Position numbers and translations under genes: made by a program
Shown: positions 1 through 13,328 of the stretch, one piece after another
How positions within the stretch are numbered: position 1 is the first letter of the stretch
How the letters are laid out: each line of letters starts with the position of its first letter
Source of the DNA: Euglena gracilis
Taxonomy: Eukaryota
Reading direction: 5' to 3'
NCBI GenBank assembly: GCA_039621445.1
Contig: CP154954.1
Coordinates: 45,177,847 to 45,241,846, forward strand
Length of the DNA: 64,000 nt
The notes under the pieces: model-generated
What the model saw: only the letters and a program-made list of their open reading frames with translations
Database searches by the model: none
Told to the model about the DNA's origin: nothing

Positions 1-1659
1 ATCATTCCAAAATTTATCAAATGCGTTGGAGTGTTGTGACCAATGACATGGCAAACGGGCATGTGCATTGGATGAAAAGGCATCGATTTCCAATGCCAAA
101 TCAAAAGAATCAGCCAATGTCGCGATTTTGGAAAACCATCGTTCCAAAATGCGATATTGACCAAAATTAAAAGCATTCCGTACGCGTTTCGCGTATTCAT
201 GCACCCGATTTTCGGGTTGAAGGGTAGAAACACAATGAATGGATCCACAAACATGCGAGTTGTCTTCCACTACCTCAAGGGGTAATCCCAAGGGAGTTTG
301 GACAGGTTGGGGGTTTCCCCATTCCGCATCAAATCCGTACCAGGTGTGATCGCGATTGTAGTTAGGAATGACGCTTTTCGCATTTCCAAACAACGAGGTT
401 AATCCGCGTTGTTGGAGTACTCGGTGTATCTCCGCGCATTGCGGGCTACAACCAAGTGTATCATGGCGTGTGGATTCCGTATTCGGAATTGTGATTAGTG
501 TCGGAGTTTCAACTAAACATCCACAATCGAAATCCGATTGGGTGGAAATTCTCCTGCAGTGCACACATTGGAAGGAAGTGTGTTGGTGTGACAGGTGTGC
601 GTGTAAGTGGGTGTCGATGGCATTAGCCGGTGAGTCTTGTACAGGTGTGCCTGGATTCGGCACAACTGGTGGGAAACGGAGTGGTGGTGTAGCTGGGCGA
701 CTACTCGACACCGTAATTACTTCAGGCCTTTGGGCTTTCGTCTTGTAACCCAGTGAAACGGCGGGGGTACCGCTACTCGCTTGCCCTGCCTCATGTGGAA
801 CGCATGTTGGTGTGTCATTGGGCAGGGGGGAGGCTTTCTCCGTACCCCGGGTGTGGAAAACGGTTGGTGGTGTGGTGGATAACGGTGTTGCCATTGTGGG
901 TAACGGTGTTGGAAAAGTGGTGGTCATCATTGCGGATGCCAACGGTGATGGTGGTTTGGGTGTCAATGAAGTGGTGGGTGCTGTGCGCAAACCGTGGGAG
1001 TGGCAATCCACAACCAATCGGTACTGGTGTAAAAATGGGTATCCCAAAATTACGTCAGACCCGTGAATTCCGGACTCGTAACCCCAAATATTGGTGAAAT
1101 GTTGTAATTGTGGGGGTTGTGAGTGATGCTTCGGAATGATGGGCAAGAGTATCTCGAGCACACATCCCAAATCACCACCACACATGGGGGTGTTATCCGC
1201 GGTTGTAATTTTGATCGGTTTCTTGGCGCTTACCAAGAGCGGGGTCGGTATCAACCCCAACCGAAAGAGCAGTGCAATGCGACAACCAGTGTCAATGAGA
1301 ATTTTAACTTTGGTGGAGAAATTTTGAATGCGGATTTCCGCTTGGACAAGTAATTCCATTGGTGGTACGCAAAGTGAAGGGTCTGGCGGAAATACGTTTG
1401 CATGCCAGCTCTCCCATGAACCCTTTCCTACTTTGCTCAGCATTCCGAGCGGAAATGTGGAGTGGGGGGTAGGGGACCCGAAATGATTCCGGGTACTGAC
1501 CGTGAAGGCGGATGGGCAGGGGGGGTAAGGTTGATCAGGTCTTACCTCCATCTGTTCATCAGCCCAGAGGGCCTGTGCCCTCGGACCTCGGGCTCCCCTA
1601 CTCCAAGTCCGAACCGGCCGCATAGCCGGCAATGGACTTTTTGGTGGAATAGATGGAAT
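1..1659 (-). CDS. pol: Pol N-terminal part (aspartic protease, linker, start of an N6-adenine-methyltransferase-like domain); open to the window edge
   Basis: Translated by hand; absent from the ORF track because it lacks a stop. KVKILIDTGC (~1270-1310), DVILGYPFL (~1030-1057), LEIDAFSSNAHARLPCHWSQHSNAFDKFWND (1-93). Confidence 0.85.
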   Translation of the reverse strand, partial: MPSIPPKSPLPAMRPVRTWSRGARGPRAQALWADEQMEVRPDQPYPPCPSAFTVSTRNHFGSPTPHSTFPLGMLSKVGKGSWESWHANVFPPDPSLCVPPMELLVQAEIRIQNFSTKVKILIDTGCRIALLFRLGLIPTPLLVSAKKPIKITTADNTPMCGGDLGCVLEILLPIIPKHHSQPPQLQHFTNIWGYESGIHGSDVILGYPFLHQYRLVVDCHSHGLRTAPTTSLTPKPPSPLASAMMTTTFPTPLPTMATPLSTTPPTVFHTRGTEKASPLPNDTPTCVPHEAGQASSGTPAVSLGYKTKAQRPEVITVSSSRPATPPLRFPPVVPNPGTPVQDSPANAIDTHLHAHLSHQHTSFQCVHCRRISTQSDFDCGCLVETPTLITIPNTESTRHDTLGCSPQCAEIHRVLQQRGLTSLFGNAKSVIPNYNRDHTWYGFDAEWGNPQPVQTPLGLPLEVVEDNSHVCGSIHCVSTLQPENRVHEYAKRVRNAFNFGQYRILERWFSKIATLADSFDLALEIDAFSSNAHARLPCHWSQHSNAFDKFWND

Positions 1660-4600
1660 TCAATGAGCGCACCGCCATTCGGGCCTCATTAAATTCCCCG
1701 TCCGAGGTCTCATCTCCCTCCCTGCCCGAAGCCGGGGTGTCCTCCTCCAAACAAGACATCTTGAAACTGACCTTTTGCCGGTTGGAGGAGTAACCACGGT
1801 CATCGCGGCGCTTACCGCGATTTCCGTAGCCGGGCCGGGGGGAACGAGATCTGGGACATTTGGATGCGTGGTGATCTTTGGAACCGCAAAGTGAGCAACG
1901 GGCTTTGTGGCGGGATTCCGCATAACGGGGGGAACGGTATTCCGTTCGACCGTCAAACCGTCGTGGTGAACGGGTTTCCCGTCGACCATGACCGGTGTAC
2001 CGGGGTTTCCCCGGTGACTCCCGCGAAGAGGATGATCCACTTCGCGAACGCGATCGTGAAGAGTCGCGATTGAAATCCCGTTTTCGGGTAGGGGGTCCAG
2101 GTGACCGACCGCGAGAGGGACGGGTTTCCCGACCATCACGCGATGGTGACTTGGGCCTATTACCGCTAAAGCGGTTCTCCGAAGAACGTGAAACCCCCGA
2201 TTGACGTGAAAACGCCGAGGAACCCGATCCCCGTGAGGAGGTCGAGCCCCTTGGGCTTCCAATACGCTTTCGCGCATCGGGATTCGGGCATTCCCGAGAC
2301 ATGTGACCAGATTTGTTGCACAAAAAGCACAGTTTATCCGTGCCCTGGTCCGAAGAACGCTGATTCCGCGTTTTCGATCCCGTAGTGGGTGATCTTGGTG
2401 ACATGGGTGATTTTTGCAACGCATTAACCGCACCCGCAGGGATTCCCGCGGTGGGATGCGTTTGGAAAGCGGATTGTATTTGTCCCAAAACTTGTGTGAG
2501 TTTGAGTTGCTTTGACACATAATTCCAACGTTGGGCAAGAGTCACCTCATGCCCTGCCAACTCCTCGCGATGGATATCCTTCACGAGGGATGGTGTGAAA
2601 TGCAACAAAACCGCATCGAATTGTTCGCGCATTTGCTTCTCGCTAAGTTCATCAACTTCGGAAGCAAGTGCTAACCATTTGGCATACCAAAGGTCAATGG
2701 ATTTCCATTTGCGATCCGATGGTGCGGATTGTCGCCACTTCTTCTCCAGGGTAATCCTGGTGACCAAGCTTGAGTTGGTTGAAGTGTATTGCTCAACCAG
2801 GTCATCGAATGATACGCCATTACGTATCACCAAATTACGTGCGCGTTCTCGCTCCTCCCTCGGTAGGCAATCGATGAATTCCATCTTGACTACCTCGGGA
2901 TTCAGGTCTTGGGTGGGTCCCTTTAGTGCCCAATAGTACTCCCAGTCCCGAAAAAATTGTCTCCATGTGGTTGGATCCCCGTCCCATTGGGGCTTCACCT
3001 TGTTCGCGATTGCGATGGTGCCCTTGAAGTCTCTCTGAGTAACCCGCTGACCCTCGGTGGTATTCCAGGGGTTTGGGTCAGGGTAATTCTTAACACCAAA
3101 CGCGTTTCGCGGATTTTCCGCTCCATGTGTAACCCGTGCAGGATTTCCCGCACCAAGTGTAAGGTTGGCAGGATTTTCCTGCGGTATTTGCGAAAAATTC
3201 GGTGAAATTCTCCCGGTGGGGCGGGTTTCCCGCCGAAATCCCGACGGGTGGTCTGGTAATCCAGAACCCGTTGGTGGTTGGTATGATCGCGAATGCGACA
3301 CATGACCAATACCAGGTGTGGGGTGTTGGCTCATTCCTCGTACAAGGTTGGAATTTTGAATTTCTTGGTGGAGACTCGAATTTTCGAGTGGGGGGTCAAT
3401 TTCCTCATCGGAAATGTCGTGCGAAGAGTGAGTTTGTGGTGTTGGCAAATGCAAAGGTGGTACAATTCGCGTTTTCGCGGGTGGTTGTACCAAATTCGCG
3501 GTGGATGTAGGGATTCCTACTCCAGAAATGGTAATTTGAGAACGCGATTCTGGGACATTTGGAATACCAACCGCAGCGCTTACCGCGGTGGATGGTGGCA
3601 CAACCGGTGCCGGAGTGGACATTTTATCCAAACTCGCGGACAAGTCATGCACCGTTTCTTCCAAATGTTCCACCAACTGGAGTTGGCCGCAAATACGGTC
3701 AACCTCAGTCTCCAAATGCCTAATGCGTTTGCGGTACCGGGAAAAGTCGTCCAAGTGTGGTAACTTTTCGGAGACCAAGTGTAAATCTTGGACAAGTTGT
3801 CCTTGGGACTCCTCCACATTCCGGAGTTGACCCGCAAGCGCTTTTACTGCATTTGAGACGGTTTGCAATTGATGGAGTGACTTTGTGGGGGTTTCCGCGG
3901 TGGTGCGCGAATTTCCCGCGGTTGGCTTTTCCAACAACGCAGAAATTCGTGCATCCAACCGTGAAACCTCATCTTGCATGGATCGGGCATTCCGATTCAC
4001 CGATTCCTCAAGTTGAATCAAACTTGTGCAAAATGCTTGCAAGGTTTCCTTGTTGTCACCAAGCATTTTGTTGTAAAATGAGCGAAACTCCGGTGACTCG
4101 GATATCCGAGCACGCGAAATGGGGGGTAGTGAGCGGATTTCCGCTACTGTGGTGGACAACAAGGTGCAACGGGTTTGTAATTCCCCAATAGCGGCTTGAA
4201 TACCACTAATGTCGGGAATTCGCTTGGAAAGTGCGGAAACATGCTCCTGCAAACCGACAACGGTGGCATTTATACCGCCAATGTCCGTTTGCATTTGTTG
4301 TTGCGTGAAATCCAACCGTTGTGCGCAATCCGCGATTTTCGCGTTCAAGGTGGTTAATCCATCCTGATTTGTGGCACAATGGCAGGATTTTTGCTCCAAG
4401 TGTGAAATTCGTTCCTCCAAAAGCTGGATTTGCGTACGGGGAACAAAATTTTCTTGCACTTTCGCCTGAAATTGCTTCAAGTGCTCGATTTCCGAGCCAA
4501 GATGCAAAATCCGTTGTTGGGCTTCTTGGAAAGAAGTAGTGAGTGTGGCAAAATGCTCAACCGCGACAAAGTTACCGATTTCCGGCATTTTGGGGGTGGC

Positions 4601-5377
4601 ATTTTGCGCTTGTGACTGGTGCTGCAATTGCAGTAGCATGGTTGAACAGGATTCCACTTTGGCAAAAAGGTGGTTCATATCATCTTGCACATGCAGAAAC
4701 TTGGAATCATTCCGCGTTTCCGCTTCATGCAGCATTTCGCTGATTTGTTGGAAATTTTGTGGAAGTTGGATGCGTAAAATACTGTCAACACTTTCCCGAA
4801 AATGCTGAAGGTCTTTCCCCGCATTTTCAAAATTGTGTTGGCAATATTTGCCGATTTCCTGCAAATAATTCCAGCAACACTCCAGTTTGGTGTTGACAAC
4901 CCTTTGATTGTCCTCATCGAACTGCAAAACTTTGTTGAGCATGGTTGCACATTCCGCAACGCATTGGTGGACATGCAAAATTTGTTTGCTAAGCGGGTGA
5001 TCCGCTGGGAGTTGACCGAGAATTCGGTAAACATCACCGGGGGTGAGGTTATCCCTCAAATCTTCCTCATAGTCCTCCACAATGGAAACGGCACCAGAGA
5101 TTTCCGGTACCACCAGACGCATATCTGGGTTCCATGGCATTGCGGGGAAAACCGCAGCTTCCGCGGGTAATCCCGCAATGCGTGTAATGGTGTGGGGGGG
5201 GGGGGGTAATTGAGGGGGGTTGGAAAAAACACGGTGTTTCCACCGAGTTGCACCCCAAAAGGCCCACCGGTGCTTCCACCGGGGATCTTTTGGGTGTGAA
5301 CAGAGCAAAGGGCAAATACCCCTCACTTTGTTCATGGGTAACATGAGTAACCAAGTGTGAGGGGGCAAGGGGTTCAT
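1598..5377 (-). CDS. gag: Gag-like protein, 1259 aa, long coiled-coil N-half, two CCHC zinc knuckles, RS-rich tail
   Basis: CFLCNKSGHMSREC and CSLCGSKDHHASKC; capsid-like PQWDGDPTTWRQFFRDWE; intact ORF. Confidence 0.88.
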   Translation of the reverse strand: MNPLPPHTWLLMLPMNKVRGICPLLCSHPKDPRWKHRWAFWGATRWKHRVFSNPPQLPPPPHTITRIAGLPAEAAVFPAMPWNPDMRLVVPEISGAVSIVEDYEEDLRDNLTPGDVYRILGQLPADHPLSKQILHVHQCVAECATMLNKVLQFDEDNQRVVNTKLECCWNYLQEIGKYCQHNFENAGKDLQHFRESVDSILRIQLPQNFQQISEMLHEAETRNDSKFLHVQDDMNHLFAKVESCSTMLLQLQHQSQAQNATPKMPEIGNFVAVEHFATLTTSFQEAQQRILHLGSEIEHLKQFQAKVQENFVPRTQIQLLEERISHLEQKSCHCATNQDGLTTLNAKIADCAQRLDFTQQQMQTDIGGINATVVGLQEHVSALSKRIPDISGIQAAIGELQTRCTLLSTTVAEIRSLPPISRARISESPEFRSFYNKMLGDNKETLQAFCTSLIQLEESVNRNARSMQDEVSRLDARISALLEKPTAGNSRTTAETPTKSLHQLQTVSNAVKALAGQLRNVEESQGQLVQDLHLVSEKLPHLDDFSRYRKRIRHLETEVDRICGQLQLVEHLEETVHDLSASLDKMSTPAPVVPPSTAVSAAVGIPNVPESRSQITISGVGIPTSTANLVQPPAKTRIVPPLHLPTPQTHSSHDISDEEIDPPLENSSLHQEIQNSNLVRGMSQHPTPGIGHVSHSRSYQPPTGSGLPDHPSGFRRETRPTGRISPNFSQIPQENPANLTLGAGNPARVTHGAENPRNAFGVKNYPDPNPWNTTEGQRVTQRDFKGTIAIANKVKPQWDGDPTTWRQFFRDWEYYWALKGPTQDLNPEVVKMEFIDCLPREERERARNLVIRNGVSFDDLVEQYTSTNSSLVTRITLEKKWRQSAPSDRKWKSIDLWYAKWLALASEVDELSEKQMREQFDAVLLHFTPSLVKDIHREELAGHEVTLAQRWNYVSKQLKLTQVLGQIQSAFQTHPTAGIPAGAVNALQKSPMSPRSPTTGSKTRNQRSSDQGTDKLCFLCNKSGHMSRECPNPDARKRIGSPRGSTSSRGSGSSAFSRQSGVSRSSENRFSGNRPKSPSRDGRETRPSRGRSPGPPTRKRDFNRDSSRSRSRSGSSSSRESPGKPRYTGHGRRETRSPRRFDGRTEYRSPRYAESRHKARCSLCGSKDHHASKCPRSRSPRPGYGNRGKRRDDRGYSSNRQKVSFKMSCLEEDTPASGREGDETSDGEFNEARMAVRSLNSIYSTKKSIAGYAAGSDLE

Positions 5378-5919
5378 CCCCTCGCCGCATCAATGATGGG
5401 TGAATCGGGATAGAGGAAGGCATTTTGCCACCTACATCCCGCACAATCAATGACAATAATGATGAAGAGGGTTCATTACCCCCATGCAATAATAAAGGCG
5501 TTTCGCCTTTTGAGAATGACAAATGAGTCAAATTGCCTTCTTCTTGCTTGGGGGGTCGGGAATTGGAACTTGTTTCATTCAAACCGTTCCAATCCCCGCA
5601 ATCTTCATCACAATTGCTCAATGAACTCATCAACAAGTCATAATCAAATTTGGGGTTGGGGCTTGTGCTCTGCATCTTTTGAGATGGGTAAAAAGGCAAA
5701 AACCCAAAAATTCACACAAATAAGCAGAGAAACAGGGACCAGAAAGGTTGTATCGGCGATTACCGAACAGAGCCTTCTGAGACCTGTATCCTTGCTTAAA
5801 GGTTGGCTAGGGGCCAGGAACGGTACTTTCACCGTGTTTCACGGCTCAGTACGATCCTCACCACCAGTCAACCACAGAGTTTCTCTGTGTGGAACGTCTG
5901 TGTAGGATCGTTGCCTAAA

Positions 5920-5929
5920 TCTGCTACCA
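5920..5929 (-). promoter_or_regulatory. Primer-binding site (initiator tRNA-Met type)
   Basis: TGGTAGCAGA directly after ...GTACA-CT. Confidence 0.8.
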
Positions 5930-5931
5930 AG

Positions 5932-6355
5932 TGTACGTCCAAAGCTTTCCCTTTTTCCCTTTTTGGGACTTTCTGTAAAAGCCTTTCGCTTTCGCCTTGG
6001 TGCGCAGCCTACTTATGGTAGGGAAAAGTCTTTGGAGTAACGAAAAGTGGTTTTCCCCTTTTCTTCCCAATTCCCCAAGAAGCAAAGCACAAAGCAAAGA
6101 CTCAGAAGTTTCTTCTGAGATCAAGTTCGATTGTTCCGAGGGTTTTTCCCTCTGACAAAACCAATGGTCAAACTTGGAATTGATGACAGTGAAGAATACC
6201 ACCTGTGGGGGAAGGAGAGAAAAGTGCTGACGTGTCCAGGGGCAGATCCCAGAAGGGTCTGCCACGATCCTACCAGCTGTGGTTTTCCACAGTGGTGCGA
6301 CCGTCACAGAACCCACTCTGCAGATATCCTACAGAGCTGGGACGTGCCTGGTACA
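5932..6355 (-). repeat. 5' LTR (424 bp)
   Basis: TGTAC...GTACA termini, followed after 2 nt by the PBS; the partner LTR is not in the window. Confidence 0.75.
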
Positions 6356-6907
6356 CACCCACTCCATGGCGCTCTTTTGACTGAAATGCAAGGGTTTTGT
6401 GCCCGGAACCGGGCACCCGGGGGTCGAAAAACACCCCGAAAACGGCTAAGTCGGACAGTGGTGAAAGTTTGCAACGCGGCCATACCTCTGGCTAGGCGGG
6501 GAGTTTCGTACTCCCTCGAGGGAAACCGACCAGGGAGGAAGGGACACCGAGGGCGAAGAACAAAGACCTTGTGAGGCCATGCCTTGCTCGCCGGCGGCGC
6601 TGTTTGGATTGTTTGGGTGCATAGGGTTAGGAGGTCCCGCTTAGTGCCTTGACCATTCGGGCTCCGCACTTCGAGATGGTGAGGTCCTGCTTTCCTTGCC
6701 GGCTGTTCTGTTCTGGTGTGTTTGTGCGTGCGCGGGGGGTGCTTCTTACTGCTTTTTGCCGGAGTTGGCTGATTCCTAATTCTGCCCTTCGACCACAAGG
6801 AGAAAGATTTCAACTCAACGAGTTCAACAACGTTCAGCACAGCATCCAATCAATACAGAGGAGGAAGAGGAATTCAGACGATAACGAAAAGCGCAGGAAG
6901 AAAAATT

Positions 6908-7622
6908 TTGATTTCCATGAAAGATGCAACATACCTGGAGTCCAGCGGCGCAACAGAGCAACAAAGAACCCCTGCGAAGGCAGCAGAAGCTGGAGAAGAT
7001 GGAGTTCCAGCAGGCGCCAGAGCAACCAACATGGAAAGGCAAGCAGCGTTACAAGGAGTTTCAAGGAAGAAACCTGAAGTGGAGAAGAGTGGAGGAGCAG
7101 CAAGCGCTGGAGACGATGACGGAGCAGGAGCGGAGCACCAGTCCGTGGCCATCGCAACCCCCCCACCTTCCAATTTCCCGAAAAAATTTTCAATTCCAGT
7201 TCGACGACGGCCATGGACCCTGGACATTGGTGGCCAGAAAGTCGAGGAGACAAAGACACCAGCAGCCCACAGCCCAGAGGGACAGAAATGCGGAGACAGG
7301 TCTGGAAGACTACCCCCCCATTTTCACATCACCACCCCCCACCCAGGGGGAACATTCCAAGGGGAAATGGACTGCATCAAGGGCATGGCGACCCTTTCCA
7401 ACAAGGCTATGGCAGCCATCATCAAAGGCATGGCGCCCAGCTGCAAGGCTATGGCAGCCATCATCAAGGGCATGGAGTCCAGCTGCAAGGCTATGGCAGC
7501 CATCATCAAGGGCATGGCGCCCAGCTGCAAGGCTATGGAAGCCAGATGTAAATGCTGCAAACTTGCCCCAGGCTAAAGGCATGTCCAACTTACCCCACAG
7601 CTGTCTCAAAATCATAACATAA
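6908..7622 (+). CDS. Putative DIRS ORF1 (gag-like) region with a 42-bp tandem repeat; true frame uncertain
   Basis: Lies between the left ITR and RT; overlapping ORFs of 222 and 232 aa; repeat at ~7380-7540. Confidence 0.4.
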
Positions 7623-7904
7623 CATAAATCCCGCAGGAGCTGTCAATCAATGCAGCAAGCAGCCCCCCCTTCAGGGGCAGAAGGCCAATGGAGGCCATGG
7701 TATTCAGAATCAAGAGGCCAATGGCAGCCAGTGGAGAAATCAAGACCTCAAGGCCAGGGCAGGACATTTCAATCGAAAATCAGGAGGCCAATGGGGGACA
7801 AAATATGATTCAAGATCACCACATCAGCCCTTGGGGGGGAGGCCCAAGATTGGCTGCAACAGGGCCCCCCCAGAAGATAATCAGCCCAGACACCCCAGCT
7901 TTGT

Positions 7905-9919
7905 ATGTACCACCCCCACTGCAGACACAGACCTTCCCTCATCATTCAAAATCAGGGGGAAAGCCTGTCCTTGGAAAGCCCTATGGCAGGGCCAGCTGCA
8001 GCCCCAGTGATGGGGCAACCAAGGGGAAGGACCCCAGTGATGGAGCCTGGGGAATCCCCAGACATATTACACCCAGGGGTGCCTCCTTACAAGGCCCTGC
8101 AGGCCAGCCTTCCCCATTGGGTCAAAGCAGGTGCCAGCAGAGAGGTATTAAACCTGATAAGGGAGGGGGTTATGGCAGATCTTCCCCTCCCCCCTCAAAT
8201 GTCCTTAAAAGTTCCCTTTAAAACCCCCCAAGAAATATTGACAGCCCAGAAAATTCTAAGAGAATATGAATGTGCAGGGGCAACCAGGCAGATCCCCCCA
8301 CAGGAGGCAAAACATTTTGTCCCTTATTTCACCATTTCCAAAAAAGAAGGGGAAAAGACCAAAGAAAGACTGATTTCAGATTGTCGACAGTTAAACCTCC
8401 ATTTCACCCCCCAGAAGTTCAGATTGGAACACATGGGAAACATCTTCCCATATCTAAGAAAAGGTTGGTTCTGTGGGAAAATAGATCTGAAAGATGCTTA
8501 TTTCCACTTAAAACTGCACAGCAGCCTGGAAAAACATGTTTGTATGCAGGTGGGGGGGGGGGACTTGGCAGTTTCAAGCTGCATGCTTTGGTATAAGCAG
8601 CCTGCCACAGAAATTTATGGCTCTCATGAGAGTCTGGGAAAGGAAATGGAGAAAGGAGTGGAAGGTGGTTTTCATCTACCTCGACGACATTTTGCTGTTA
8701 GCCCCCAGCAAACAGACAGCAGCCCAACATTTGGTAGAAATGCAACAGGACCTTTTACTGGCAGGTTTCAGATTAAACCTCCCGAAATCCTGTTTGGAGC
8801 CCACTCAGGAAATAAAGCATTTGGGCCAGTGGATCAATTTGAAAAAAGGCCAACTGGAGATTCCTCAGGAAAAATGAAAATCCTTGAGAAAGGAGCTAGG
8901 CAAGGTGCTCACAGCACAAAAAAATGAGCTGCAGAAAACTCAGCTCCATTGTGGGGCAGGTCAGAAGCTATTTAGTCTCCATGCCATTTCTCAGAATTCT
9001 GACAGATCAACTTTGCAAAATGGTGGATTTGCACACCAAATGGGGTTGGGACCACACCCTGACCATTCCTCAGGGAGTCAAAGATCAAATTGTGGAGTTA
9101 AAATCGTTTTTACAGCCAGGGGTTGGCAGGGCATTTCAATCCCAGGCCTCTCAGGAACTCTTTTCAGACAGCAGCACCTGGCAATGGGGGGGGGGGGCTG
9201 GACAAGGAATCAGGCCAAAAGGTGCAGGATTTTTGGAGGGACCTGCATGTCCTTCATATCAACCAAAAAGAGTTGCAAGCTGCAGTGGAAACTGTAAAAG
9301 CACTGGCCATCATGTCGACAGCCAGGTGGCTGTGAGTTATTTAACAAAGTGGGGAAGAAAAAAGCCCTACCTCAATTCCATTTTAAAACTCCTGCTGTAT
9401 CATTGCCAAGAAAAGCAAATCAATTTGCAGGTGGTCTGGGTTCCCACAAAGGAGCAATTGGCAGACTCCCTGACCAGGGAGCAAAAGGGCCCAGGGAATT
9501 ATACCCTAAACCCAAACATCTTTCACCAAATTCTTCATATTTTCAGGAAGGACATAACCCCAGAGGTGGATATGTTTTGCACACCCAGCAACAAAAAATT
9601 CCACAAGTTTGTTTGTCGATACCCCCACCAAGGGGCTTTGCTGGTGGATGCCTTGAGGGCAGACTTGAGGGACCTCCCCCCAGTTTATGCAAACCCCCCC
9701 TGGAGCATCATTCCCCAGTGGGTTCAGAGGTTAATGGTAAACCCAGACCTGCATTGTCTGTTGATCGTACCCCACTGGGCTTCGACATCATGGTGGCGCC
9801 AATTAATGTCAATCAGGCAGCCAGGCAGCAAAGTTTTACTGGTACCCCCCCAGTGGGGTCTGTTCACCAACTGCTGGGGGGAGGAGATGCCCCCCCAAGG
9901 TGGAATTTGGCCTGCTTGA
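7905..9919 (+). pseudogene. DIRS pol: reverse transcriptase, RNase H and MT domain, frameshifted mostly at homopolymers
   Basis: RLISDCRQLN, KIDLKDAYFH, FGISSLP, FIYLDDIL; LFSDSS, HINQKELQA, VDSQVAV, LADSLTR; EVDMFCTPSN...YANPPW. Confidence 0.9.
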
Positions 9920-10830
9920 TTGTGTCAGGCTAATATTACAATCCCAGGAAGTTTCGATGTCCAGTATCGACACTTACATAAAAAATCTGGGAAATGTCAA
10001 GAGATATGACTCGGCATTTGGCCAATTGTTGCACAAAGGGGGTGCCCCTGCAGGACTGCACAGTCCACAAGATGGCCGAGGCCATCCTTGATTTGGCTGC
10101 CCACAGCCTCAACACTGCACGAAATGCATATGCAGCAGTTTGATTACTCCCAGGGTTTGGGTCATTGAGGTTTTCCCCTCTTTTGTCTCCATTGAAAAGG
10201 AAATGGAATTCCAATGTCTGCAAGTATGCCCATTTTTGGGACCCCACTTATTTCTTAGAAAACATCATCAGGAAATCCAAACCCCTCTCAGACCTATCTG
10301 TAAAGGAGCTCAGAAACAGACTAATCATCTGTTGGAGGCTGTTGGCCCTCCACAGGGGGGTTGATTTAGCTAGGACACAGCGAAAAATCAGTTTCGTGGG
10401 GGAAAAATTTTTCATTTTATTGCAAAGGAAAGGTGGCAATTCCCCAGATGGGAGGAAGTTTTGTTTTTGCCACACACACACACACACACACACACCCCTC
10501 ATAAGCCCCTGGCATTTATTGAAAGAATATGTGGAAAGGACAGCCCACATGATTGGGCACAAAAATAATTTGTTATGGTCTTTGGATGGAAAAAGACCTT
10601 TGACAGCAGAAAGAGTGAATTCCCTAACCAGAGAAATTCTGCAAGAGGGAGGGGTGGACACCACCCACTGATAACCCCACAGCACCAGAGGAGCTGGGGT
10701 TTTATGGTGGAAAAATGCTGGTTTGCAAGTGGAAGAAGTCCAGCAATTGGGTCAGTGGAAAAATTTTGGGGCCTTCCAAGCTCATTATTTACGACTCGGT
10801 GTCGTTTCAAAAATTCAAAAAATTATGGCC
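9900..10830 (+). pseudogene. DIRS tyrosine recombinase, disrupted
   Basis: LHRGVDL, HSTRGAG (10678-10698), QLGQWKNFGAFQAHYLR; frameshifts and a (CA)n tract at ~10472-10495. Confidence 0.85.
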
Positions 10831-13328
10831 CATGGGGGGTGCACAGTACCTCACCATCTCGAAGTGCGGAGCCCGAATGGTCTCGGACGCCCACGACCGA
10901 GGAAGGGGGAGGAAGGGACCAAGAGGGCGAAGCACAAGAAGATGGTGAGCCCAACCCCCCCACCCAAAAATCAGCAGAAAAAGAAAGACATCCCAACCAG
11001 AAAGGGGACCCCCAACCAAGCAACCCCAACCACCCACCCAGAAACACAAAGAGAGACAGCCATCCCCATCGAGGGGGGGGGGCCGCCAAGCAAACATGGG
11101 AGAGGGGGGGGCGGGGCCACGACGGTTCAGCGTCGCCAAGGTGTCGGAGGAGGCCCCATCATCGCCAACTCCGGCAACGAAGGCGCAGTAAGAAGCACCC
11201 CCCGCGCACGCACACCAGAACAGAACAGCCGGCAAGGAAAGCAGGACCTCACCATCTTCTTGTGCTTCGCCCTCTTGGTCCCTTCCTCCCCCTTCCTCTG
11301 TCGTGGGAGTCCGATTTTCGCCGAGTTGGCTGATTCCTAATTTGCCCTTCGACACCCAGAAGAAAGGAACTTCAAAATACCAAAATACCGCTCAAAATAC
11401 CCGTGGATGGGGTGTCCCAAGGGCTTCAAATTTGATCTCTGGACATTTCCTTTGATTTGGCTTCATTTTGGGGATATTTTGAAAATTGACATTTTTTTTG
11501 GCCGAAATGGCAGGGTCCAAAGGGGGGGGAGGCTTATCCAGGGGGGGCGGGCCGATCCTACCCAGTTTGACCCCTTCGCGCGTGAATAACTCGGGCCTGG
11601 CGGGGAATTGGGAGTCAAACCCAGGTGATTCGGAAACTTGAAATCCAGTCGCTCGCGACTGAAAAAAAAAATTCGGGAACAGGGTCGGGATCATGGTGGC
11701 AATCTGTCCGTTCTCCGGGTGGCCCCGACCTGGGGGGGGGGGGGGCGGGGGGGGGGGGGAGATGGGGAGGGTTTCGCCAGGGGTAAGCTTCGCTCTTATC
11801 TTTCACCCAAAAATATGCAAAAAATTAATTCAGAAATCGCTTGGTTTTCCTCTGCGGGGTGGCAACACCTTCCTTGAAATGAGCAAGTCAATTCGCCTCC
11901 AAGTCCCAAAATTGGTTGTGTGTGGAAAAAGAATACATCACCACGAGCCAGATTGAACCGAGGTTGCCAAGGTTGACTATTGAACACATCCGACCAATGC
12001 ATCCTGAAGAGATTGGAAATGGCTCCTTGGGGTTTCGTCGTGACACAGGGCACATGCAATACAGGTTGTTTGTTTAACACATATGTAAATAATTTGTTCA
12101 TTACATAAATAAATTATGTAACCTGTGGGGAGGGGGTCAGACCTCCTTGACCGGAGGGTGGGGAACCCATAAAAAACAGTTGTTATCAAGCCTTTTTCCA
12201 AGCTTCCAAGGTTGCACTTGTTCTGGGTGCTGAATGCACACAATTCCCCAGAGCCCACAAACCTGGTTTCCAGAACCCAACTCCCCATTCCTTGAGCCAG
12301 CTAAATTCATATAAAAAAAACACAAAAACAGAATGCAAAATGGTGGGGGGGGTGGAAACGTACATGGGCAAACCAGTGTCTTGGACATCTTTCTCAAAAC
12401 TTTTTGTCAAAAAACAAAAACCAACGGAAAAATGCCCACCACAAAGCGCGGTGCAAACTTGCAAAACGGCATGGCTTGCCCAGTTGCACACACTTCTATT
12501 CCACTATGCAGTTCGCAACTTCCAGACTGGCAGAAAAGCAACTCCGAAAAAAGTTTGCAAAGAAATTGAAAACCAAAATGTGCAAAAAAATGCAAAAAAT
12601 GCTCATTTTCAAGGTTCTGGATATGCCAAAATAAAATCAAGCAAATTTCATATTCAATATTGCATATTGCACATTGCATGAGCAACTTGCATATTTTATC
12701 CCCCCCCTCAGAAGTAAGCCCCCCAAAAATGGACCCCCAGCCCATTTTCAGCAAAATAAAAAAATAAAAAATAGACTCCCAAAAAATAATAATCTCTCAA
12801 TTGGGGAGGGGTGCACTTTTCTGAAATTCTTCAATTTAAACCGTTTTTCATGTGCTAAAATTGGCTTTTTTTTGAGACAATTCTATTTTGTTGCGAAAAA
12901 TCTATGCTTGTTTTGAGCGATTTTGCGTTTTTGGACCACAAAAAAGTTGGTTTTCGGCCAAAAAATTCAAAATCCAAAAAAGAACTCGACCCCCTTAAGA
13001 TTTTTTTGCAAAAGACCCAAAAAAAGACTTTTACCCAGGGTTGAGCAACCCAGAGCTGCCAGCAAACAAGACAGCAGGGGTCAGGGGATTTTTTAAGACC
13101 GGGGGGGGGGGGTGGGGGGCCCCCCCCCCACCCCCCCACCCACCCCCTGCCCCCCCCGGCCGGGGGGGGGGGGGGGTCCTGGGGGACCCACAAAAAAAGG
13201 CCGAAAAATCGCGAAAAGTGCTAAAAATAGCACTTTTTCGGCGCCAAAAAGTATATCCCACCCCCCTCCGGTCCGGCCGAGCCCCCTCCTGGGGGGGGGG
13301 GGGCTCGGCCGGACCCAGCCACCCTAAA

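Follow-up and report, generated by a model that had tools for sequence, protein, structure and literature searches.

Does an LTR retrotransposon of Euglena gracilis that encodes a Dam-like methyltransferase (MT) domain downstream of its protease carry its own DNA methylation writer, or is the domain kept for something else? The locus lies at the edge of the window, the whole stretch of 64,000 nucleotides that was analysed (G000:C1:45177847-45241846, in an assembly of 2.37 Gb and 46 contigs). A sequence-only reading of this DNA described an LTR element with an adenine-methyltransferase-like domain in an unusual position. Here we describe the element, the domain and its catalytic motif, and the functions that the domain may serve.

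The host element

The minus-strand frame 1659→1 comprises 553 codons without a stop, and the MT domain runs beyond the window edge into the motif WMHPP, the adjoining DNA reading FDKFWND-TVLWMHPP. The motifs quoted in the sequence-only reading (LIDTGC, DVILGYPFL, a Pro/Thr linker and CxxC-x9-CxC) were all located in frame. The features of the window copy are as follows.

1..195, minus strand: Dam-like MT domain, N-terminal part (YAKRV…LEIDAFSS…WSQHSNAF…KFWND), from the frame reading and the domain matches of a sister copy
1-15, minus strand: KFWND, read in frame 1659→1
70..93, minus strand: LEIDAFSS, likely the equivalent of SAM-binding motif I (an assignment that we presume)
517..567, minus strand: C-x2-C-x9-C-x-C module, probably zinc-binding to judge by its residues; under purifying selection, with dN/dS 0.06-0.22 over 24 codons; present in 10/10 proteins examined, public relatives from the clade among them
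580..975, minus strand: Pro/Thr-rich linker, its amino acids almost without constraint
976..1359, minus strand: aspartic protease, with LIDTGC at 1282-1299 and DVILGYPFL at 1030-1056
1560..1600, minus strand: gag/pol junction, with a single in-frame TAG (1598-1600) and then a predicted hairpin
1598..5389, minus strand: gag-like ORF of 1263 aa between stops, its N-terminal half coiled-coil-like
5920..5929, minus strand: primer-binding site TGGTAGCAGA, immediately after the 5' LTR, which we take to match initiator-Met tRNA
5930..6357, minus strand: 5' LTR, 428 bp, termini TG…CT, with 2 differences from the 3' LTR (L012:8408-8835)
6358..6362, plus strand: target-site duplication (TSD) CCCAC, its second copy at L012:8403-8407

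Measured between its 428-bp LTRs the element is 16.8 kb long. In the window frame and the neighbouring DNA, pol has the order protease (PR)–linker–CxxC–MT–reverse transcriptase (RT)–RNase H (RH)–integrase (IN)–chromodomain, with matches 3' of the MT domain to RVT_1 (1e-24), RT_RNaseH_2 (7e-11), rve (1.5e-10) and Chromo (2e-10), and also to Integrase_H2C2 and SH3_Tf2-1. The RT-RH-IN block and 3' LTR that had been expected downstream are therefore present, accompanied by the chromodomain. The gag-like ORF contains a CCHC zinc knuckle at about 2282-2332 (zf-CCHC, E 8.6e-6). A Pfam scan of the protease region returned no family, and the protease is identified from its motifs alone. A polypurine tract, GGGAGGGGGA, precedes the 3' LTR. 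On the basis of its LTRs, primer-binding site, TSD and domain order, the element is classified as a Ty3/gypsy chromovirus-type retrotransposon.

The TSD is CCCAC, not the caccc given earlier; a duplication caccc flanking TG…CA termini was ruled out. With TG…CT ends, perfect 5-bp TSDs flank 9/9 copies that have both ends, and 2 of the 11 copies examined lack one end. The genome holds about 4,900 copies of the lineage in four families (A, B, C and D); in families A and B the LTR termini are TG…CT instead of TG…CA. Relative to an intact natural copy, the window copy has three 1-base indels in pol, at codons 8, 541 and 1259. The indel at codon 541, just past HPP, is the loss of one base some 25 bases outside the window, ahead of position 1; one extra base is found near 1574, at the gag/pol junction. 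The window copy is young and, with three frameshifts, dead.

The junction sequence between gag and pol is shared by 9/10 further copies fetched from family A and by 4/4 from family B, and the hairpin following the TAG has a predicted energy of -25.2 kcal/mol (calculated without a shuffle control). A second Dam-bearing LTR lineage (L095:5774-5833) likewise has a single in-frame TAG and a predicted hairpin (-16.8 kcal/mol). The combination of stop codon and predicted hairpin in both Dam-bearing LTR lineages suggests stop read-through, and the TAG with its hairpin is likely the read-through signal.

Several further observations were made in and around the copies. A (TTAGGG)n-type interstitial tract (L012:7900-8030) lies about 400 bases past the 3' LTR. 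A very long ORF occupies the env position 3' of the integrase (L011:1-5411, minus strand, and L012:9755-9901); in a family B copy (L174-L175) it is one unbroken frame of 1867 aa stop to stop. The ORF is mostly low-complexity with two Cys/Trp-rich, globular-looking blocks, and gave no Pfam match above cut-off in the pieces scanned and no usable Atlas match for residues 1-410. Another family B copy (L176-L177, G000:C6:936000-955300), with a pol frame of 2811 aa, sits inside a tandem array whose unit measures about 216 bp.

A broken DIRS element lies at about 6500-11380 of the window (plus strand), with a frameshifted RT-RH and an MT domain reading YANPPW at 9512-9916; its family is large (28,050 first-look candidates). 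With this MT-bearing DIRS 8 kb away, and with the caution of Fernandez-Moreno et al. (bioRxiv 10.64898/2026.05.21.726589, 2026) about nested insertions and assembly artefacts in Euglena, the gypsy domain might stem from a nested piece of a DIRS or from chimeric assembly. We regard this as extremely improbable. Of the 150 scored copies, 19 have an uninterrupted 1699-aa pol frame that includes the domain (one of them read fully), and all four families, as well as independent public proteins, show the same order. The element itself has direct LTRs, a protease, a DDE integrase and an MT domain before RT, a combination that does not fit DIRS, whose repeats are inverted or split. An origin of the domain from the neighbouring DIRS was also rejected: the two MT domains are 18% identical, and their joint grouping fails the AU test (p-AU 0.0099, with two DIRS-like companions picked after the tree had been viewed).

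The methyltransferase domain and its motif IV

Comparison with the Dam family, put forward in the sequence-only reading as a check, gave nothing for the piece in the window (positions 1-1659 against Pfam, 0 families; 1-189 against PHROGs, 0 matches) and succeeded with the complete 146-aa domain taken from an intact sister copy (L004). This domain matches Pfam Dam at E 5.2e-5, its 23.4 bits falling short of the 28.1 cut-off, and phrog_111 DNA methyltransferase at E 7.3e-6. Pfam Dam is also matched by 74 of 75 aligned relatives. A 5-sequence profile searched against the sequences of solved structures gave a single chance match (E 0.45), and a first, shallow model gave nothing in the PDB at E≤0.001 (Foldseek); a later model from 75 sequences was used instead (pLDDT 96.5, pTM 0.90). 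The best viral structure match of this model is a phage DNA N6-adenine methyltransferase (E 7.6e-10, TM 0.75). Among solved structures the best match is zebrafish PCIF1/CAPAM (Z 11.2, rmsd 2.6, 126 aligned), followed by PH1948 (Z 10.3) and METTL5 (Z 9.2), the top ones being amino-methyltransferases. The domain is thus predicted to adopt a phage-Dam-type class I Rossmann MT fold, which is by itself no proof of function. The likeness to the DIRS and Dam domains claimed earlier is beyond chance by these matches, and in this protease-bearing, tRNA-primed LTR lineage the Dam-like MT domain does separate protease from RT.

The catalytic motif is of a different kind from that anticipated. An NPP[FWY] motif had been expected within about 10 codons of the window edge; five codons past it the frame reads W-M-H-P-P instead. 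The sequence WMHPPP is found in 9/9 other copies first fetched, and 141 of the 150 scored genomic matches are identical to the domain. Family B reads WMHPPP, family C WLHPPL and family D mostly WMHPPL. In a genome-wide search with a single codon-context pattern the motif position is His in 4,884 matches, Asn in 25 and Asp in 11 (0 in a reversed-pattern control), a count from which the window copy is absent because of a G→N change. A search for [NH]PP followed by T[AGT][CGT] gave His in 10/10 cases, the next residue being Leu in 8, Cys in 1 and Tyr in 1. The His is encoded by CAC and by CAT. Eleven of the 25 Asn matches (NPPL) come from family D, lie on at least seven contigs (L183-L186, L192, L196 and L198-L202) and may represent a sub-lineage that kept or regained Asn.

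The motif IV pattern of active N6-adenine/N4-cytosine methyltransferases, [DNS]PP[YFW], is therefore absent, both catalytic side chains being replaced lineage-wide (Asn by His, and the aromatic residue by Pro or Leu). According to extracts of PMC3814359 and PMC8187626, the N6 proton is taken up by the Asp/Asn of motif IV while its Tyr stacks on adenine, and the D164A substitution abolishes RlmJ activity. With a degenerate motif throughout the lineage, the proposal that the element carries its own 6mA/4mC writer is unsupported.

A profile search of 1.84 billion proteins returned 9,477 relatives at E≤0.001. Among the best 150 of these, the Asp and Phe of motif I are each present in 148, NPP[FWY] in 111 and HPP[FWY] in 5, the last mostly outside the clade of the Euglena element. 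A protease motif lies upstream of the MT domain in 25 of the 150, indicating that protease–MT–RT is a wider design; the MT domain does lie between protease and RT as first described, and its position is less unusual than was thought, given these relatives and the precedent in the preprint. A word-index search (longer proteins only) gave 1 match among 66 candidates, family C of the same genome. Careful trees were built from 53 rows chosen from a 155-row tree, leaving out P0087, a truncated close relative with HPPP. With motif columns removed, the four families group with 11 public proteins in a single clade (support 100/98), in which the canonical motif occurs in 0/15 members. Its sisters read NPPH, NPPH, NPPQ and CPPF, and clade and sisters share invariants of their own, such as His53 (18/18, vs 10% outside). 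More distant protease–MT–RT members retain NPPF, and elements of this kind, their NPPF motif still intact, are the likely ancestors of the lineage.

Selection, expression and possible functions

Selection was estimated from one natural copy per family (four families, 6 pairs), family D being represented by an Asn-bearing copy picked for the longest frame among 14 loci. The dN/dS of the MT domain is 0.06-0.18 in 5/6 family pairs, the remaining pair being saturated (upper pN/pS bound at most 0.38). The corresponding values are 0.03-0.06 for RT (3/6 pairs), 0.10-0.20 for the protease, 0.63-1.44 for the MT-RT spacer and 0.72-1.13 for the Pro/Thr linker, the last partly inflated because dS in the linker (0.19-0.57) is below that of the flanking domains (0.59-2.9). 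The MT domain is still under purifying selection, comparable to that on the protease and unlike the linker and spacer. The reduced synonymous divergence across the linker (580-975, minus strand) hints at a structured RNA or at some other constraint overlapping the linker.

Expression was read from four of 24 listed runs. In two raw RNA runs, which are tied to the genome by species label only, the family is almost silent: of 12.9 million reads per run, 65 and 46, mostly partial matches, fall on 10 kb of an intact copy (counted without a host-gene control), with depth <2 over the MT domain in both. Contig runs X3 and X15 are taken as presence, not transcription.

We favour, at somewhat better than even confidence, the reading that the window holds a dead copy of a high-copy gypsy element whose Dam-type domain has lost catalysis, or kept little of it, and serves to bind SAM and nucleic acid, not to write methylation; as His and Pro/Leu occupy the positions of the catalytic Asn and aromatic residue, normal methylation is likely absent. 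In the mechanism that we propose, Gag-Pol would be translated past the TAG, the protease would free the MT domain or leave it on RT, and the MT-fold module would enter the particle with RT. There it would bind SAM and the RNA or cDNA of the element without normal methyl transfer, assisted by the Cys module, the scaffold having been retained for binding once catalysis decayed. Against a non-catalytic domain, His can hydrogen-bond and several Trp are conserved in the domain, and the near-fixed His across families could reflect a working, altered active site. The Asn-bearing family D copies, the five relatives with HPP[FWY] and the higher 6mA described for DAM-LTRs in Euglena (see below) count on the same side.

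The domain may then instead be an active amino-methyltransferase with a rebuilt site (His for Asn, another aromatic residue stacking the base) that acts on element RNA, an RNA:DNA hybrid or cDNA, an alternative that takes in the earlier 6mA-writer idea and that we consider possible but rather unlikely. Such an enzyme would account for purifying selection as strong as that on the protease, for the intact fold (in the model) and motif I, for the nearly fixed His and for clade-specific invariants such as His53. It has a precedent in RlmJ, which an extract of PMC3814359 describes as active though its motif IV Tyr points away, a Trp stacking the base instead. The nearest solved fold is an RNA cap methyltransferase, PCIF1 (Z 11.2), but a METTL5-like protein ranks level with it (Z 10.3), and the similarity concerns the fold only. 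Motif IV moreover drifts freely across the clade, which is unusual for a catalytic motif, and no HPPY methyltransferase was seen among the literature listings, judged by title.

At the other extreme the domain would be a vestige, a folded spacer for the folding or processing of Pol that binds neither SAM nor nucleic acid. Any folded domain in an essential polyprotein gives a dN/dS well below 1, and the family is barely transcribed. However, loop and surface residues (motif I, S-x-H and the Pro-Pro of motif IV) are as conserved as the core, and the domain remains whole across the four families and the public relatives even as its flanks vary in length, which makes a mere spacer improbable.

We tentatively consider, as a speculative and on balance doubtful extension, that a whole protist gypsy clade has repurposed the captured Dam enzyme as a His-lined, zinc-module-assisted protein that reads or modifies the RNA of the element and not DNA, the cap methyltransferase PCIF1 being the nearest solved fold. 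If so, retroelements would keep Dam domains for something other than writing 6mA, and the lack of demonstrated activity in any of them so far would be accounted for.

Comparison with known systems

LTR retrotransposons with Dam-type domains (DAM-LTRs, including a Euglena group) and EpiLTRs, which combine a DAM and a DNMT domain with a chromodomain, were described by Fernandez-Moreno et al., the only description of DAM-LTRs in the literature searched. In their preprint, the Asn-Pro-Pro triplet and the next aromatic residue are conserved in the pocket, and expression of eukaryotic DAMs in E. coli gave no gain of 6mA. Since this negative result includes canonical domains, it does not separate the canonical from the degenerate kind. 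They also report more 6mA on Euglena DAM-LTRs (the main text leaving the counted families unspecified) and low LTR expression in Euglena, and propose that the elements mark themselves with 6mA. The present element resembles DAM-LTRs in being Ty3/gypsy-like, in the Pfam-Dam-type domain that its pol carries, in its chromodomain and in combining a high copy number with low expression, and differs from them in its HPPP/HPPL motif, where theirs is the conserved NPP plus aromatic residue. The element class is thus already known. The main text of the preprint mentions no degenerate motif, protease–MT–RT order, Cys module or read-through, and the degenerate-motif variant was not found in the literature searched, a scope that leaves out most subscription journals. 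At only 23 bits, the domain may fall under the E 1e-5 screen of the preprint.

In DIRS elements, the MT domain is described in extracts of PMC3783388 and PMC6338049. The DIRS1-group domain (PF05869; PMC3783388, in part) shares its Pfam family and motif layout with the domain of the Euglena gypsy element. In that extract the DIRS1-group domain follows RT-RH and is accompanied by neither protease nor DDE integrase, unlike that of the gypsy element. The neighbouring DIRS retains YANPPW, which the gypsy element does not. Phage N6-adenine methyltransferases (phrog_111) are alike in fold (TM 0.75 to phage Dam models), as is PCIF1/CAPAM (Z 11.2 to the zebrafish protein). Identity to phage Dam and PCIF1 is 14-22%, and the canonical catalytic motif is absent from the gypsy element.

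An EpiLTR-type family is present in the same genome (L095-L102, e.g. G000:C16:31774345-31786698), with LTRs of about 655 bp that are 99.7-99.8% identical in two copies. Its order is a cytosine-methyltransferase-like domain (recognized from motifs), Dam (WLNPPW, about 50 bits), protease and RT. In the RNA runs, 308 and 253 reads fall on 8.6 kb of this NPPW family, almost none of them over the Dam domain. A GT..AG joint that skips gag (L095:1614→5924) is supported by 21 and 27 RNA reads, and loose read ends at L095:1490 carry poly-T, which we presume to resemble a spliced leader. As reads exit the L095 element near 6040-6110, they possibly come from a deleted derivative.

EpiLTRs and the HPPP element share the host, LTRs, an in-frame TAG between gag and pol and a Dam-type domain. 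In the HPPP element the Dam domain instead follows the protease, is 20% identical to that of the EpiLTR and falls in a different part of the tree, and a cytosine-methyltransferase was not matched in L004 pol residues 1-1032, the integrase part or the 3' ORF pieces scanned. The genome thus pairs a canonical NPPW family with about 4,900 copies that lack the motif and whose domain is still selected, a natural NPPW/HPPP pair suited to asking whether catalysis is the selected function.
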